Shown here piece by piece: positions 22,434 to 48,985 of a stretch of 50,137 bases of DNA; position 1 is the stretch's first letter; each line of letters opens with the position of its first letter. The position numbers and the translations under genes were made by a program. Source of the stretch: Candidatus Woesearchaeota archaeon (GTDB lineage Archaea; Nanobdellota; Nanobdellia; Woesearchaeales; JAGVYO01); NCBI GenBank assembly GCA_018303225.1, contig JAGVYO010000021.1:1-50137 (forward strand). Direction: 5' to 3'. The notes below the pieces were generated by a model that was not told the origin of the DNA, did not search any database, and saw only the letters and a list, made by a program, of their open reading frames with translations.

Positions 22434-22521
22434 GCGCAGATGGTCTAACGGCTATGACAGCGGCCTTCCATTTTTTCCGAGAAGCAAGCCGCTTATCCGG
22501 GTTCGAATCCCGGTCTGCGCA
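22434..22521 (+). tRNA. tRNA-Gly (anticodon UCC) with a 16-nt canonical intron (22471-22486) between positions 37 and 38.
   Basis: Hand fold: acceptor GCGCAGA/TCTGCGC, D-arm GTCT..TGAC, anticodon stem GCGGC/GCCGC, loop CT-TCC-A[intron]A, T-arm CCGGG-TTCGAAT-CCCGG, discriminator A. The BHB is CUUC:GAAG with bulges CA|U and CA|A. No CCA is encoded. Confidence 0.85.
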
Positions 22522-28540: not shown

Positions 28541-29215
28541 TTAATATTCATCGAGTTTTTTCTGGTTTTTCTTCTGGGCCAGACGTCGATACGGATCCCA
28601 CGTTTTACGGAAGATGGCCGGGTAGTCGAGGTAATTCTTTTCCAAAAAGTCCTTGGTGGCAGGATCCGAGACATAGCCGGAACCAAAATTGATGCCTAAT
28701 TTCTTTTTGAGCTTCTCGATCTCCCTATCGCGGGTCACCTTGGCAATAATGGAAGCCGCGGAAACAATGGGATAATTGGTATCGGCCTTATGCTCTGCAA
28801 GAATCTCCGGCAGGTAATCCAGCTTGGCTGCGAGATAGGCCTGATATTTCCTGATATTATTGCTGGGCGAATCGATGATGACTCTGTCCGGCCTTAATTC
28901 GTTGATGATCAGGGCTGTTGTGTCGGCTTCCAGCCAGTTCAGATTCGATTCCTCGGAATTCAGCGCATCGTCAATCTGTTGAGGGGGCAGAATGACGGTC
29001 TTGTGGCTTTTGGCCACTTTCAGAAGCTTGTCATAAAGGGCTTCCCGCTGCTTCGGACTCAATAGCTTGGAGTCCTTCGGCTTCAAGCTTAGCAATCTGG
29101 CTTCGTCCTTCTGGTCTATACAATAACCTACCATAACCATGGGACCGATGACAGGCCCTTAGGGCGAATCTTAGGATTCTCTACCCGCCTCATCGATCCC
29201 GCAGATCAGCGGCAT
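28541..29215 (-). CDS. rnhB: Ribonuclease HII, interrupted by a 21-nt in-frame element. The predicted mature CDS is the join of 29215..29181 and 29159..28541.
   Basis: The ORF track starts at 29140 (MVMVGYCID...) and lacks the catalytic N-terminus. Upstream in the same frame, ATG 29215 gives MPLICGIDEAGR-ES*DSP*-GPVIGPMVMVGY. AGGTGA lies 4 nt upstream of ATG 29215. Confidence 0.75.
29160..29180 (-). other. Candidate bulge-helix-bulge intron within the rnhB mRNA (21 nt, contains two TAA codons).
   Basis: The RNA reads ..AGGC GGGU [AG|A] GAAUC CUAA GAUUC GCCC [UA|A] GGGCCU... It has a 4-bp central helix GGGU:GCCC flanked by 3-nt bulges and a 5-bp inner hairpin. Cutting after the second bulge nucleotide gives GGU AGA GGG CCU, which encodes G R G P. 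Confidence 0.6.
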
Positions 29216-29313
29216 ACATTCACCTGGTTTTTCCATTGGAAAGGATGTATTTAAGGTATTCGATTTTTCGTGATTCAAAAAATATATAAAGTAGGAAGAA
29301 TACTAAAAGAAAT

Positions 29314-29619
29314 ATGGATTCGCTGCAGGTTATCGGGCTCAAAGAGCTGGATGTGGATGAGCAGGAGACGGTCAGCAGGGTCGCCAACCGGCATTACGCA
29401 AAAATCCAGCGCTTATTGAAGGATCTCTCATCGGTGCAGATCCATGTTAAAACCCATAGCAAAGGGGGAAAGAAGAGGTATGAGATAAAGGTCCGCGCCA
29501 TGACACCTGCGCATGTCTTCGAAAGCTCGATGGAAGACTGGGACCTGGCAAAATGCCTTCATGTTGCGTGCGAGGAACTCCAGCATGAGATTACGCATAG
29601 GTTAAGTCCGAAAAAATAA
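29314..29619 (+). CDS. Small protein resembling the ribosome hibernation/RaiA-HPF (S30AE) fold.
   Basis: The 101-aa product follows the b-a-b-b-b-a sequence pattern, with ...KRYEIKVRAMTPAHVFESSMEDWDLAKCLHVACEELQHEI resembling the ..EDMYTAIxxLxxKLERQL end of YfiA/HPF. ATATATAAA lies 28 nt upstream of the ATG. Confidence 0.4.
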   Translation: MDSLQVIGLKELDVDEQETVSRVANRHYAKIQRLLKDLSSVQIHVKTHSKGGKKRYEIKVRAMTPAHVFESSMEDWDLAKCLHVACEELQHEITHRLSPKK

Positions 29620-30613: not shown

Positions 30614-30712
30614 TAGCGAGGGGTGGATTTGAATTCGGCAGCGGCTCTTCACCGCTTCCACCGACCTATGGGTTATGGGCCCATCGGGCACTCCTGACTG
30701 CCCCACCTCGCT
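30614..30712 (-). tRNA. Initiator tRNA-Met (CAU) with a 24-nt non-canonical intron (30634-30657) in the T-arm between positions 53 and 54.
   Basis: Hand fold: AGCGAGG-TG-GGGC-AGTCAGGAGT-GCCC-G-ATGGG-CC CAT AA-CCCAT-AGGTC-GGTGG[AAGCGGTGAAGAGCCGCTGCCGAA]TTCAAAT-CCACC-CCTCGCT-A. The A1:U72 pair and the three G:C pairs at the base of the anticodon stem are archaeal initiator marks. The BHB is CGGU:GCCG with bulges GG|A and AA|U and an inner helix AGCGG:CCGCU. Confidence 0.8.
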
Positions 30713-44241: not shown

Positions 44242-47200
44242 TCATTTTGAACCACCCACCTGGGAAAATTCGCGTTCCATCTGCTTCTGCACGTCCGCCA
44301 GTAATTTCTGGTAATCTTTCTCGAATTTGGCCTCTCCAATGCGGTCTTTGGCCTTCAGTCCAAGAATCTGCTGGACACGCGCCCCTTTTCCGAGCGCTTC
44401 GTAGGCCAATTTGCGGTACAGCAAGAGGATCTTCATCAGGAGGTGCGTCTTCTTCAATTCACAGTAGGTATCCACGTCGTGGAAGGCGTTCTGCTGGAGG
44501 AACGATTCGCGGATCAGACGAGCCACTTCCAGCGTCAATTGCTGCTTCTCGGGCAATGCGTCCGAGCCTACCAGCTGCACGATTTCCTGCAACTTGTCTT
44601 CTTCCTGAAGGATGGCAGAAATTTCTGAAATCAACAGCCGCCAATCTGAGGCCACGTGCTGCTTAAACCACGGTTCCAGCGTATCCAGATATAAGGAATA
44701 CGAGGTGAGCCAGTTGATCGATGGAAAATGGCGTCGCTGCGCCAGTTTTGCATCCAGTGCCCAGAAGGTCTTTACGACCCGCAATGTTCCCTGGGTAACA
44801 GGCTCTGAAAAGTCACCGCCGGGTGGAGAGACTGCTCCAATCAGCGTGACCGAGCCTTCCTGCTTTGTCCCCAACGGAATGACACGGCCGGCGCGCTCGT
44901 AATATTCAGCCAGTCTTGTAGACAGATAAGCCGGATATCCTTCTTCACCGGGCATCTCTTCCAGTCGTGACGAGATTTCCCGCATGGCTTCGGCCCACCG
45001 TGAGGTAGAGTCGGCCATGACCGCTACATTGTAACCCATATCCCGGTAATATTCGGCAATCGTAACGCCGGTATAGATAGAGGCTTCTCGTGCAGCAACC
45101 GGCATATTCGAGGTGTTGGCAATCAATACCGTACGATTCATCAGCGGCTTCCCGCTTTTCGGGTCTGTAAGTTCCGGGAACTCTTTCAGCACTTCGGTCA
45201 TCTCGTTTCCGCGCTCGCCGCAACCGACATAGACGATGATTTCTGCGTCGCACCATTTCGCCAAGGTCTGCTGGGCTACCGTGTTGTGCAGAATCATTGG
45301 AGTGTTGCCACCCACAAAGTTATGCGTTTCCGGAACAGTGATGTCATAGACATCCATATCCTTGTCGATGATTTCAACATCCAGAATTTCATCGCAAAAG
45401 ATATAATCCAAAGCAGATGCGAATTTCGTCAATTGAGCGTTTTGAAGTTTGGATGCAACTTTCTGCAGTGTTTGAGCCGTCATGTTCTGGTTGACATAGT
45501 AGGCAGCAGTGGATATGCCCTCCTTTTCAAGAGCAAATGGTTTTGTTTCCCCCAAGAGTTCCCTGAAGAGTGTGGATGTCATGGGAACTATATCATTTGA
45601 ATTGTAATAGAAACTCTGGTCGTAGTAGGGGTGTATCTTGATTGCTTCCCTTTTGGGTATGAAAACTCGGTAGTATTGGACCCCATTCACCAGCTTGGTT
45701 CTGGTTCTGTTGAGAACACCCAAACGGAGCAACAAGTATGCCAGTGAATCTTTCATCTTTGCGCTTGCGGTTGCTATTTCTATTTCCTTTTTTCCGACAT
45801 GTCCGTCACAGCTTATGTATGCCACAAGGAAACTCTTAATTACGGAAACCGGAGACACCAGAAGCTGCTTGGGAATATCGACATTCCTGGATTTTTTCAT
45901 CAGGGGCATATTCAGGCTTTCAAGAAGTTTTGCCAGGATAATGGATCCTGTTTGCACGGCTTCCACTGTCCTTGCCCAATATTCTTTTCCTTCAAGGCCA
46001 AACAGCTCTTTCAAAAGGAATTTGAATCGCTGTCTCAGTTTATCCTTTTTATTGAAAAAGTGAACAGTTCTGAAGCCCTTTATCATTCCATCTGCCATAA
46101 CATAGCCCACGAATTCAGAAAATTCTTCCGTAAGTACTCCAGGGATGGAAACTTTGTTGTGGAATCTCTTTGGCTTATAACTGAAAGAAATGGGCTGGTA
46201 TTCGCCGCTGTAATCCGTCTTTCTGGGAGAAATGATGAAATCCCCTTCTGAAAGATTTTGCGCTTCTATTTCTCCGATAGTGAGCCCCTCATCCAGCCTA
46301 AACAGTTTATGCACCGGAGTGAGCCTTACCTCTTTCCCGGACCGTGTGTTGATTTTCACTATTCTGCTGGTTTTGCCTTTATAGATGTGGGTTGCCAGCG
46401 CTTCAACTATCCTCTCCCCATTAAATGTCTGTATTTTGAGAGGTTTGGCTAGTTGGATTATTGTTTCATTCCCATGGACAGCTGCTTCACCATCGGCGGT
46501 TTCAAATACATTTTCAATCGGCCTAAGTTCTCCGTTGACAAAAATCTTTGTTTCTCCGGTGATGCATTTTCCGGCTCCGAACGGGCCCGGAATGGCTGCC
46601 ACGCCGCCTTTGGCCAACGGGAAGAGTGCATCAAAAATGCGCTGTCCTGAAACCAAGGGCACTTCGGGTGTCAGCTTTTTATTCACCGGCCTCGGCAGAC
46701 GAACTGGCCAATAATGGGATAATTTGATTTCTATACCATTATCCAGTACAGCAACCGTCTCTTTTACGGTAAAGCTGCCGGACTTGATCTCTTTGAGGGT
46801 GCCGCCCACATTTGGCGGAACCATGATTTTTTGGACAAGGCCTTCTGTCTCCTCAACTTCGCCGATGATGGATCCACCGGACACCTTATCTCCTTTTTTT
46901 GCCGTTGCCTTAAAATCCCATTTCTTCTTCGCATCCAAGCCGTCGGCATAGACGCCGCGCTTGATGAAATCACCCATCTGCTTCTGCAATACAGGCAATG
47001 GCCGCTGGATGCCGTCATAGATGCTGGTCAACAGCCCGGGGCCGAGCTGCACGCTCAGCGGCTGGCCTGTGTTCGTCACTTTTTCGCCGGGCTTCAGGCC
47101 GGAGGTATCTTCATACACCTGGATGACGGTCATGTCACCCCTTATCTGGATGACCTCGCCCATCAGCCCTTCATTTCCCACACGCACCACGTCATACATC

Positions 47201-47268
47201 CGGGCCTGGATGCCCTTGGCCACGACGACGGGGCCTGCAATCCTGTACAATTTTCCTTCTTGTGTCAT
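44242..47268 (-). CDS. atpA: A/V-type ATP synthase catalytic subunit A, interrupted by an intein (extein about 580 aa).
   Basis: Contains KLYRIAGPVVVA..., the split P-loop GPFGAGK|[intein]|TVAQQ, and VAVMADSTSRWAEAMREIS. ATG 47268 follows GGTGAT. The ORF-track TTG is at 47283. Confidence 0.9.
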   Translation of the reverse strand: MTQEGKLYRIAGPVVVAKGIQARMYDVVRVGNEGLMGEVIQIRGDMTVIQVYEDTSGLKPGEKVTNTGQPLSVQLGPGLLTSIYDGIQRPLPVLQKQMGDFIKRGVYADGLDAKKKWDFKATAKKGDKVSGGSIIGEVEETEGLVQKIMVPPNVGGTLKEIKSGSFTVKETVAVLDNGIEIKLSHYWPVRLPRPVNKKLTPEVPLVSGQRIFDALFPLAKGGVAAIPGPFGAGKCITGETKIFVNGELRPIENVFETADGEAAVHGNETIIQLAKPLKIQTFNGERIVEALATHIYKGKTSRIVKINTRSGKEVRLTPVHKLFRLDEGLTIGEIEAQNLSEGDFIISPRKTDYSGEYQPISFSYKPKRFHNKVSIPGVLTEEFSEFVGYVMADGMIKGFRTVHFFNKKDKLRQRFKFLLKELFGLEGKEYWARTVEAVQTGSIILAKLLESLNMPLMKKSRNVDIPKQLLVSPVSVIKSFLVAYISCDGHVGKKEIEIATASAKMKDSLAYLLLRLGVLNRTRTKLVNGVQYYRVFIPKREAIKIHPYYDQSFYYNSNDIVPMTSTLFRELLGETKPFALEKEGISTAAYYVNQNMTAQTLQKVASKLQNAQLTKFASALDYIFCDEILDVEIIDKDMDVYDITVPETHNFVGGNTPMILHNTVAQQTLAKWCDAEIIVYVGCGERGNEMTEVLKEFPELTDPKSGKPLMNRTVLIANTSNMPVAAREASIYTGVTIAEYYRDMGYNVAVMADSTSRWAEAMREISSRLEEMPGEEGYPAYLSTRLAEYYERAGRVIPLGTKQEGSVTLIGAVSPPGGDFSEPVTQGTLRVVKTFWALDAKLAQRRHFPSINWLTSYSLYLDTLEPWFKQHVASDWRLLISEISAILQEEDKLQEIVQLVGSDALPEKQQLTLEVARLIRESFLQQNAFHDVDTYCELKKTHLLMKILLLYRKLAYEALGKGARVQQILGLKAKDRIGEAKFEKDYQKLLADVQKQMEREFSQVGGSK
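45283..46566 (-). mobile_element. A 428-aa intein with a LAGLIDADG homing-endonuclease domain, inserted in the Walker A P-loop of atpA.
   Basis: It starts at Cys (CITGETKIFVNGE, codon 46566-46564) and ends ..GGNTPMILHN (45285-45283), followed by Thr +1. LAGLIDADG-type blocks are FVGYVMADGMIKG and SFLVAYISCDGHVGK. It is more AT-rich than the flanking extein. Confidence 0.85.
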
Positions 47269-47283
47269 TTTGAAATCACCCAA

Positions 47284-47592
47284 TCACTTTTGCTCCCATA
47301 AATCTACGCCTACGGATTTTCGGATCAGCCGCCGCAGGTTTTCCTGCGAGGCTTCCTCGGAAAGCGGGACAAACACCGGATTCACGGAATCTTCGATTTC
47401 GCTGCGGTCATGCAGGTCCAGCCTGTTCAGCACGTCCTCGTCCACGATGACCACGCTGATGTTTTTGTTGGCACGGATCTCCTGGAAGGTCCTGTAGGGA
47501 TCATCGCCGGGCTGGAAGATGGTGCGGATGCCCGCCAGCTGAAACCCCACCACGAACTGTTCCCTGCCGACCACTGCCAATTCTGCCATCAT
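47284..47592 (-). CDS. atpF: A/V-type ATP synthase subunit F.
   Basis: 102 aa, MMAELAVVGREQFVVGFQLAGI... Its stop abuts the atpA upstream region. Confidence 0.85.
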   Translation of the reverse strand: MMAELAVVGREQFVVGFQLAGIRTIFQPGDDPYRTFQEIRANKNISVVIVDEDVLNRLDLHDRSEIEDSVNPVFVPLSEEASQENLRRLIRKSVGVDLWEQK

Positions 47593-48438
47593 GCCACCAG
47601 CTGCTGCTCGATAAATGCCTCGTCCATGCCCATCTGTTTCCCCTTTACCAGCACATTGAGATTCCTGGTCTCCATCTCTTTGGCAAACATGTATCCCAAA
47701 ATCACGTCTACGGACAACGGATGCTGGTGCTGCAGCAGGAGGGATTTTTTCAGCAGGTGATTGTAAAGCGCGGTTTCTACCGGAATCAACGAATTCTGCT
47801 CGTGGTATTTTTTAACAGCTTCCTTTACAGCCGGATACTTCTTTTCCACCATGGCCAATGTCTCCTCTACGCTTTTGGCATCCGTAAGATGCCGGATGAA
47901 CGTGCTGGAAACGCTGCAGGGCGCGCTCTGCTTCCTTGAACGGAAGGAGCTTGGATTCGCGGAGGATGGCTTCTTCTGAATTTTTATGGAACAATTCCTT
48001 CAGCTTTTGCCGATCCAATTCGCCAGCCGGAATCAGCAGTGCATCCAGGGCGTTCTCATCGGCTTTGGTGAACCGTGCACGGAAAAGGGTCTTGAGGTTA
48101 TAGACATCGTAGCGCTTCAGATATATGCCGATCAGCTTTCCCAATTCCTCGGGCGAGATGCGCTTCAGCTTCGTGAGCATATGGGCCATATTGCGGTTCA
48201 ACGCCTGTTCCACCAAGGCTGCTCCCCGATAGAGGGGGGCCAGCTTGTCAATCTCGCTGCGGTACTGCGAATCCTGCAAGTATCGGGCAATCTCGGAAAA
48301 GGACATCTTGAGCATCTTCTGGTAATCTTCTTTTTTGAAGAGCAGGGTGCGCATGACTACGGTGCGCACGTAGGTGTAGGGATACGTGCCTAATTGGATC
48401 TTCTTCGTTTCCTGCTTTTTCATCAAGAGTGCCTGCAT
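47589..48438 (-). pseudogene. atpC: A/V-type ATP synthase subunit C, split by a +1 frame change near 47895-47910.
   Basis: The ORF 48447..47812 is subunit-C-like up to ..KEAERALQRFQ and then runs into the implausible HVHPASYGCQKRRGDIGHGGKEVSGCKGSC. The frame of ORF 47858..47589 reads ..FIRHLTDAKSVEETLAMVEKKYPAVKEAVKKY...MFAKEMETRNLNVLVKGKQMG (the subunit C C-terminus) and is open back through the shift point. Confidence 0.7.
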
Positions 48439-48439
48439 G

Positions 48440-48985
48440 TTATCCAAAAAGTATCTTGTTCAGTTCGGCCAGCTTGTTTTCCTGGAGCTGCGCCAGCATG
48501 GTCTCGTAGCTATAATCCACCCGGACGGTCCGGTCACTGGTCTCTGCGATGAGGCCACCTAGCATCTCGTTTTCTTTTACAGTATAGCCGGTGATTGCCT
48601 TTTTGTCCATCGGTGCGCAGTAGACCGTGCCGACATCGATCTCGTTGGCTGCCCGCTTCAGCAGCTTTTGGAGGTGCTCCTTCCGCTGCTTGTCCGGCAA
48701 GTTCTTCAGTTTTTTTCGGACTTCCCCGAAGGCATTTTCGATCCATTTTCTGCGTGCGTCCATGAGATGCATCTTCATCTCGGTCTGCAGCTGCGCATCG
48801 TGCATACGCCGCAGCATCTCCAACGATTTTTGCTTCTCGGCTTCGCGCTGCTTTGTGTAGTCCTTAAACTGCTGCTGCGACTCTTTCCTTAGCCGGTCGG
48901 CTTCTGCAAATGCTTCGGCCAGCACCCTGCCGGCGTCGGTCTTGGCTTTGGCCAGTATCTCCTTTTGTACTTCTTCGAGTCCCAT
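48440..48985 (-). CDS. atpE: A/V-type ATP synthase subunit E.
   Basis: 181 aa, with a charged coiled-coil N-terminus (MGLEEVQKEILAKAKTDAGRVLAEA...) and a globular C-terminus. The position in the operon fits. Confidence 0.85.
   Translation of the reverse strand: MGLEEVQKEILAKAKTDAGRVLAEAFAEADRLRKESQQQFKDYTKQREAEKQKSLEMLRRMHDAQLQTEMKMHLMDARRKWIENAFGEVRKKLKNLPDKQRKEHLQKLLKRAANEIDVGTVYCAPMDKKAITGYTVKENEMLGGLIAETSDRTVRVDYSYETMLAQLQENKLAELNKILFG

Follow-up and report, generated by a model that had tools for sequence, protein, structure and literature searches.

A putative relaxed bulge-helix-bulge intron in the RNase HII gene of Woesearchaeota

Introduction

An intron in the cbf5 pre-mRNA of Crenarchaeota was reportedly described by Watanabe in 2002 and by Yoshinari in 2006. 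The cbf5 pre-mRNA has an "unconventional" bulge-helix-bulge (BHB) structure with cuts between bulge residues 2 and 3, and the intron sits inside a catalytic motif, where it splits the codon for the catalytic Asp; cbf5 was the sole gene with confirmed pre-mRNA splicing (Yokobori 2009, PMC2738675). Here, we describe a candidate intron of this kind in rnhB, the gene for RNase HII, on contig JAGVYO010000021.1 of a Candidatus Woesearchaeota archaeon (assembly GCA_018303225.1). The whole stretch of 50,137 nucleotides (nt) that was analyzed is referred to as the window. Its closest named relatives are Woesearchaeota/Nanoarchaeota (DPANN).

An earlier interpretation of the window, made from its letters and open reading frames (ORFs) and here called the sequence-only reading, had stated that cbf5 is essentially the only archaeal gene known to have an mRNA intron processed by the tRNA splicing endonuclease (EndA). 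This agrees with PMC2738675 and with EndA papers of 2018 (PMC5829648), 2019, and 2025, in which the protein-coding substrates cited are those of the cbf5 work only. A literature search combining "ribonuclease HII" and "bulge-helix-bulge" returned no paper, and no earlier report of a BHB intron in rnhB or in any DPANN protein-coding gene was present in the literature searched, the coverage of which is incomplete. The endonucleases of DPANN archaea are described as diverse; often they are of an alpha4 type and carry an additional L3 loop, a feature associated with the disruption of tRNA genes (PMC5829648).

Like the inserts in rnhB, relaxed archaeal tRNA introns (hBH or HBh') have a length within 16-42 nt and combine a helix of 4 bp with a 5' bulge of 3 nt, an inner hairpin of about 5 bp, and a 3' bulge that is poorly closed. 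They differ in the host RNA, which for rnhB would be an mRNA with no tRNA body to position the enzyme. The exon strands in rnhB are also constrained by codons, and covariation is found between synonymous positions and intron bases. In eukaryotes, the HAC1/XBP1 mRNA is cleaved by IRE1 at a pair of 7-nt loops and ligated by RtcB or Trl1 as part of a regulated stress response. This unconventional splicing is also mentioned in PMC13149111. The rnhB insert is comparable in that a tiny mRNA intron would be removed by a protein endonuclease that targets paired stem-loops, together with a tRNA ligase, and in that splicing would determine whether an active protein is made. The two systems differ in the enzyme and its target, which are IRE1 and two 7-nt loops for HAC1/XBP1, compared with EndA and a BHB motif as proposed for rnhB.

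Results

The catalytic motif of RNase HII is interrupted by 21 nt

The minus-strand frame starting at ATG 29215 was translated as MPLICGIDEAGR-ES*DSP*-GPVIGPMVMVGY, with seven additional codons including two TAA that split the RNase HII catalytic motif GIDEAGR|GPV. Read from this ATG, the unspliced message terminates after 14 codons. The gene can be divided into three parts, all on the minus strand. Exon 1 (29181..29215, from ATG 29215 to GGTAG 29181) encodes MPLICGIDEAG and the first two bases of an Arg codon and holds the catalytic Asp-Glu pair. The predicted intron AGAAUCCUAAGAUUCGCCCUA (29160..29180) contributes two in-frame UAA codons to the unspliced reading, the second of which uses the first base of exon 2 as its final letter. 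Exon 2 (28541..29159) starts with the A of the Arg codon and continues with GPVIGP ... DEY to the stop codon TAA at 28543..28541. Excision of 29180..29160 (AGAATCCTAAGATTCGCCCTA, 21 nt) yields an unbroken ORF of 217 amino acids (aa) that ends at this TAA. The limits of the intron may shift by 1 nt (29180..29160 or 29179..29159) with no change in the product. The predicted junction in the spliced allele is GGCGGGUAG|AGGGCCUGUC, also written ...GAUGAGGCGGGUAG|AGGGCCUGUCAUCGG....

The spliced protein covers residues 1-196 of the 199 positions in the Pfam profile RNase_HII (PF01351) with E=1.5e-43, and it can be aligned from residue 4 with the archaeal RNase HII structures 1UAX and 1IO2. In this alignment GIDEAGRGP of the spliced product corresponds to GVDEAGRGP of both structures, and the D-E pair is thus encoded by exon 1. 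We take the Asp-Glu of this N-terminal motif to be the first two catalytic residues, as in the RNase HII of Thermococcus kodakarensis. The ORF called in public annotation (28541..29140, 199 aa; NCBI MBS3126229.1, "ribonuclease HII [Candidatus Woesearchaeota archaeon]") begins past the DEAGRGP motif, and its product from ATG 29140 would have the N terminus MPLICGIDEAGRGP. A full-length RNase HII domain with the Asp-Glu pair is present in the spliced product only; the annotated ORF lacks the N-terminal segment. Translation and alignment thus agree with three points made by the sequence-only reading, namely that 21 nt with two TAA lie between R and G of GIDEAGRGPV, that cutting after the second bulge nucleotide gives GRGP in frame (the removal of 29180..29160 restoring the full RNase_HII domain), and that the version starting at 29140 would be catalytically dead. 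A Shine-Dalgarno (SD)-like AGGTGA was read at 29220..29225 on the minus strand, 4 nt 5' of ATG 29215, and no comparable motif precedes the annotated ATG 29140. Such a motif, present in the window and in some relatives, was found in only 6 of 38 alleles, which makes it a weak and not a general support for the upstream start.

The insert is predicted to fold into a relaxed BHB motif

A 60-mer around the insert was folded with RNAfold. The unconstrained minimum free energy (MFE) structure contained the pairing GGGU:GCCC, the bulge AGA, and the hairpin GAAUC-CUAA-GAUUC, with z=-3.4 and none of 200 shuffled sequences equally stable. The central helix (H2) is formed by exonic GGGU (29183..29186, minus strand as for all elements of this fold), which comprises base 3 of an Ala codon and a Gly codon, and by intronic GCCC (29162..29165). 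The 5' bulge AG|A (29180..29182) is unpaired, and the 5' cut is predicted between 29181 and 29180. Next to it lies the inner hairpin (H3, 29166..29179), followed beyond H2 by the 3' bulge UA|A (29159..29161), for which a cut between 29160 and 29159 is predicted. The exons are joined by GGC:GCC and then by an 11-bp helix, in which GGGAUCGAUGA (29190..29200, codons G-I-D-E) pairs with UCAUCGGUCCC (29141..29151, codons V-I-G-P). Of the features that define a BHB motif, a 4-bp central helix between the splice sites and a 3-nt bulge at the 5' splice site between two helices were both found, as GGGU:GCCC and AGA.

The fold described by the sequence-only reading matched the MFE structure in the helix, the 5' bulge, and the inner hairpin; the 3' bulge was 5 nt (UAAGG) instead of 3. 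Pairing between the exons, which had been described as imperfect, does exist and is longer than written. The label "relaxed BHB" is apt, as the 3' bulge lacks the canonical closure in MFE folds.

tRNA introns with the same layout are present in the window

The gene for tRNA-Gly(TCC) (22434..22521, plus strand) carries a 16-nt intron at 22471..22486 with the motif CUUC[CA|U]..GAAG[CA|A], compatible with position 37/38. In the gene for the initiator tRNA-Met(CAT) (30614..30712, minus strand), the T-arm is interrupted at the non-canonical position 53/54 by an intron of 24 nt (30657..30634) with the motif CGGU[GG|A]AGCGG..CCGCU-GCCG[AA|U]. The unspliced initiator tRNA was not detected by ARAGORN at default settings or by Rfam. 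After removal of the 24 nt at the cuts given by the BHB rule, ARAGORN reported a 75-nt tRNA-Met(CAT) in which A1 pairs with U72 and the anticodon stem is closed by three G-C pairs. The layout of this intron equals that of the rnhB element: the 4-bp helix ends in U-G, the 5' bulge has 3 nt, the inner hairpin has 5 bp, and the 3' site is poorly closed. Both observations had been anticipated by the sequence-only reading, which had assigned the initiator tRNA intron and the rnhB element the same architecture and had proposed that cuts after the second bulge nucleotide give mature tRNA-Gly and initiator tRNA-Met; ARAGORN recognized the initiator tRNA only after removal, and tRNA-Gly with a 16-nt intron. 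Because the initiator tRNA requires the removal of an intron with a relaxed layout, the organism must have an endonuclease that accepts such a layout.

Relatives carry different inserts at the identical site

RNase HII proteins of relatives are mostly full-length (215-218 aa), and the closest two are N-terminally truncated calls. A relative with 74% identity (the L001 allele, found in six independent sample assemblies with the gene order of the window) has a 36-nt insert at the identical R|G junction with a different interior. A scan of species-representative genomes gave 80 loci, and in six further GTDB species the gene is interrupted at the R|G site, with inserts of 22 nt (L025), 22 nt (L028), 29 nt (L036), 30 nt (L057), 23 nt (L066), and 27 nt (L070). 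For a scan of metagenomes, the search pattern specified nothing but the exon context (GATGA.GC.GG.AG ... RGG.CC) and left the bases of the intron helix free. Among the 80 loci listed, 55 are rnhB as judged by exon 2 homology, and the other 25 are chance matches. All four H2 positions were paired in 53 of the 55 rnhB loci compared with 1 of the 25 non-rnhB matches. Species genomes and metagenomes together gave at least 58 distinct alleles, counting only the metagenome matches listed. The 5' bulge is AGA in 51 alleles, AGT in 6, and AGC in 1. A cut after bulge nucleotide 2 gives D[ED]AGRGP in every parsed allele, and, compared codon by codon, the spliced product and the nearest intronless orthologs are colinear. 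Unrelated disruptions, which pseudogene decay would leave, were not found; the relatives bear inserts at the identical position with a shared architecture.

The inserts are 21-42 nt long, and their lengths modulo 3 are distributed 20:21:17. Being out of frame as often as in frame, they would not be tolerated if translated, and precise removal is required. Translational recoding, in which the ribosome bypasses the insert as in T4 gene 60, reads through the stop codons, or shifts frame so that RNA splicing is unneeded, was considered as an explanation. A stable hairpin immediately follows the point of interruption, and a stop codon follows close behind the take-off region. T4 gene 60 reportedly has a hairpin and a stop codon beside its take-off region as well. 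However, a bypass requires the landing codon to match the take-off codon. Here the codon before the gap is AGA, AGU, or AGC, and the landing triplet, which is that of the 3' bulge, is AGA in only 5 of 58 alleles. All three phases and the stop codons within the inserts exclude read-through and simple frameshifting. The conserved feature, two bulges separated by a helix of 4 bp and with a cut site behind the second nucleotide of each, is the signature of the splicing endonuclease, and the tRNA introns of the window are alike. Recoding is therefore very unlikely.

The size and content of the inserts also bear on other origins, namely a group I or II intron that splices itself, an intein, or a mobile insertion of another kind. 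Such elements do occur in the lineage, as seen from a LAGLIDADG intein in the AtpA protein of the window, and group I introns have been reported in rRNA of Woesearchaeota (PMC6125680). However, 21-42 nt is far below the hundreds of nucleotides of a ribozyme, the rnhB locus gave no Rfam match, and stop codons and frameshifts rule out an intein at rnhB. Terminal repeats or target duplications were not found at the insert, which showed a BHB-like fold only. An origin of this type is scarcely credible.

Bases of the putative intron and the exons covary

Base pairs were counted in a fixed-register alignment of the 58 alleles. H2 was paired in 99.1% of cells. At its outer position, formed by base 3 of the Ala codon and an intron base, all six standard pair types were observed (AU 15, UA 14, CG 10, GU 8, GC 7, and UG 2), and five types were observed at the inner position, which involves base 3 of the Gly codon (UG 20, CG 18, UA 8, GC 7, and AU 5). 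The inner hairpin H3 was paired in 94.1% of cells with compensatory changes in all five pairs. None of 500 shuffles matched the observed covariation score, and sliding the partners by 1-3 columns reduced the paired cells from 85% to 34-55%. The eight alleles that had been obtained without any pattern gave an equivalent pairing picture.

The distal 11-bp exon helix was 83% paired across the 58 alleles. To control for a helix that arises merely from encoding G-I-D-E ... V-I-G-P, 73 intronless orthologs were used. In the eight intron-bearing species alleles 10.4 of the 11 positions were paired, compared with 7.2 of 11 in the intronless orthologs (Mann-Whitney p=2.8e-6). The gain comes from third codon positions that are synonymous; the Gly codon, for instance, ends in G in 75% of the intron-bearing alleles and in 15% of the intronless ones. 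On this comparison, third codon positions of the exons are tuned toward the outer helix.

The interrupted gene is under purifying selection

The window gene and that of the 74% identical relative differ with a synonymous divergence (pS) of 0.77, which is saturated, and a nonsynonymous divergence (pN) of 0.157. Exon 1 shows four synonymous and no nonsynonymous differences in this pair. For L025 compared with L028, omega was 0.061. Judged by these substitutions, rnhB is evidently under strong purifying selection, as expected for a working gene, and exon 1 appears to be read as protein. Pseudogene decay, an outcome that the sequence-only reading had named as counting against an intron, is unsupported, with purifying selection in both exons.

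These data bear on the explanation that a random 21-nt insertion inactivated rnhB or was made by the assembler. In its favor, the same metagenome-assembled genome (MAG) contains a damaged atpC gene, in which a block of 71 residues is gone and a frameshift is present compared with a 100% identical strain, and public annotation merely calls the truncated rnhB ORF. This explanation is opposed by the identical or homologous inserts in independent assemblies (the L001 allele in six samples, and 58 alleles overall), the lack of any other lesion in rnhB, the strong purifying selection including exon 1, and the compensatory changes in the helices. Damage to the gene or its assembly is extremely improbable as the cause.

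Alternatively, a regulatory RNA element such as an attenuator or processing site could split the gene, with exon 1 as a leader peptide and a functional product of 199 aa from ATG 29140. This ATG is present and is chosen by gene callers. However, the Asp-Glu pair, which aligns to the start of solved RNase HII enzymes, is missing from the 199-aa product, and exon 1 retains the exact catalytic motif with synonymous changes only. The position of the downstream in-frame Met varies among alleles (MVGLL in P0002 and MVMVGY in the window ORF), and the intronless sisters encode the motif contiguously. We regard a split gene of this type as highly unlikely.

The putative intron is patchily distributed

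The intron is present at about 9% of the species loci, corresponding to roughly one in ten of the Woesearchaeota-type species sampled. In a neighbor-joining tree of RNase HII, five intron-bearing species group together with one intronless species among them, and three others stand alone beside intronless sisters. A shared TTTAA-containing hairpin in many of the introns suggests common descent. Within Woesearchaeota, the intron probably has an old origin and was lost repeatedly. Taking the TTTAA hairpin together with the precedent of cbf5, one old gain with repeated precise loss is the simplest history; repeated independent gain is an alternative but not the simplest one.

In the intronless orthologs the Arg codon at the junction is AGA or AGG in 46 cases and CGN in 27. 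The intronless sisters of the intron-bearing L066 and L057, which are L035 and L048, have CGT, which is unsuited to an AG|A splice junction. These codons suggest that the Arg codon may be freed once the intron is absent.

In one intron-bearing clade (L025, L028, L066, L104, L111, L113, L121, and L127) RNase HII has 288-296 aa, not about 217, and is extended at its C terminus by about 75 residues (...FTQFLKEE.KHK.HTLEDLKKLEDFG...KNGKLLVQG...).

A similar hairpin in atpC is not an intron

The gene atpC (V-ATPase subunit C, 47589..48447, minus strand) offered a second possible intron, which was rejected. The motif CATC[CGG]CATCTTACG-GATG[CCA] occurs at a frame switch near 47905 and has the geometry of a 16-nt intron, as in tRNA-Gly. 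Compared with the 100% identical intact P0121 (349 aa), a block of 71 residues (QEKNLF...LFHAK) is absent in addition to the frameshift. The break in atpC is due to a deletion variant or an assembly collapse, and the hairpin is coincidental. This false case shows that a broken ORF with a BHB-like hairpin is insufficient and that only comparative evidence separates introns from damage in such MAGs. A window-wide scan for BHB motifs and ORF fusions was likewise non-discriminating: it gave 1453 motifs on one strand compared with about 1240 after shuffling, and the spurious fusions ran into the hundreds.

Two further features of the window were recorded. The catalytic subunit A of the V-ATPase (AtpA, 44242-47283, minus strand) has 1013 aa and contains a LAGLIDADG homing-endonuclease intein, with Pfam matches to Intein_splicing at residues 248-667 and to LAGLIDADG_3 at residues 482-547. 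A conserved ORF of 101 aa (29314-29619, plus strand) is divergent from rnhB and syntenic in L001-L005. Its match to the S30AE ribosome hibernation factor family is below threshold (E=1.9e-4, 22.5 bits, cut-off 23.7).

Discussion

Several findings are on firm ground: the structure of the insert, which is conserved and covaries, the exactness of the predicted junction, the purifying selection on both exons, and the tRNA introns in the genome that depend on the same machinery. The 21 nt at 29180..29160 on the minus strand very probably constitute a relaxed BHB-type intron in the rnhB pre-mRNA. In the mechanism that we propose, the pre-mRNA would fold so that a 4-bp helix of exon 1 GGGU and intronic GCCC lies between the 3-nt bulge AG|A and a second bulge or loop UA|A.... 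The inner hairpin would stack on one side of this helix, and the long exon-exon helix would secure the other. EndA would then cleave after nucleotide 2 in each bulge, and an RtcB-type RNA ligase would link the exons to GGU AGA GGG CCU, restoring GIDEAGRGPV and an enzyme of 217 aa. The same enzymes presumably act on the relaxed tRNA introns and on the rnhB intron, by analogy of their layouts.

Several points weigh against this interpretation. A 3-nt 3' bulge closed by the outer helix, as in the canonical hBHBh' motif, was not found, which places the element in the relaxed class. The proximal 3-bp helix beside the 3' bulge is just 60% paired in the 58 alleles. Unconstrained MFE folding, an unreliable detector of the motif, finds the core in only 22 of the 58, and in all 22 of these core-consistent folds the 3' bulge has at least 4 nt (usually 4) and never 3. 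In the metagenome alleles, the AG of the bulge and the final R of the junction are not independent observations, as the search pattern had fixed them, and the shuffle statistics overstate independence because the alleles are phylogenetically related. EndA, RtcB, and other edge-truncated domains were not found in a Pfam survey of 30 ORFs of the 50-kb window, and we infer the presence of the two enzymes in the host from the two intron-containing tRNAs. Enzymes strictly of the alpha4 type had been regarded as needing a canonical BHB motif (PMC5829648). For cleavage and ligation themselves and for the enzymes presumed responsible, the support is comparative. Finally, an exact look-up of nine predicted spliced proteins in a collection of 15 billion proteins found none of them.

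The comparison with cbf5 shows extensive parallels. The rnhB intron also lies in the catalytic motif of an enzyme acting on nucleic acids, in an Arg codon four codons past the catalytic Asp. In both cases a relaxed BHB motif is present in a protein-coding transcript with the cut rule between bulge residues 2 and 3, the distribution is patchy in a way that implies lineage-specific loss, and the gene is mis-annotated. The differences lie in the host gene and in the lineage, which is DPANN/Woesearchaeota instead of Crenarchaeota (Desulfurococcales/Sulfolobales). Furthermore, the splicing of cbf5 is supported by cDNA and in-vitro data and is tied to a heterotetrameric endonuclease, whereas the rnhB intron is known from comparison. 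On the available alignments rnhB is best classed as a second archaeal protein-gene family with an endonuclease-type intron, and as the first in DPANN. The intron is widespread, and its covariation is strong and unusually clear.

A more speculative reading is that the rnhB intron represents the first visible case of a wider class of endonuclease-spliced introns in DPANN protein genes that annotation has missed, with its patchiness due in part to mobility, that is, to re-insertion or lateral spread by reversed cleavage and ligation. We consider this possible but rather doubtful. If it is true, splicing could gate the production of RNase HII, with unspliced mRNA giving only catalytically dead protein.

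cbf5 has been the sole known case for more than 20 years, and a second gene family would mean that mRNA splicing by the EndA pathway is not a one-off. The 58 or more natural substrates would form a series for defining the tolerance of DPANN endonucleases and for studying the gain and loss of introns. In intron-bearing genomes RNase HII is systematically mis-annotated as truncated and catalytically dead, as in MBS3126229.1. Gene finding, estimates of completeness, and metabolic inference for DPANN MAGs will overlook such genes if BHB introns in coding sequences are not taken into account.

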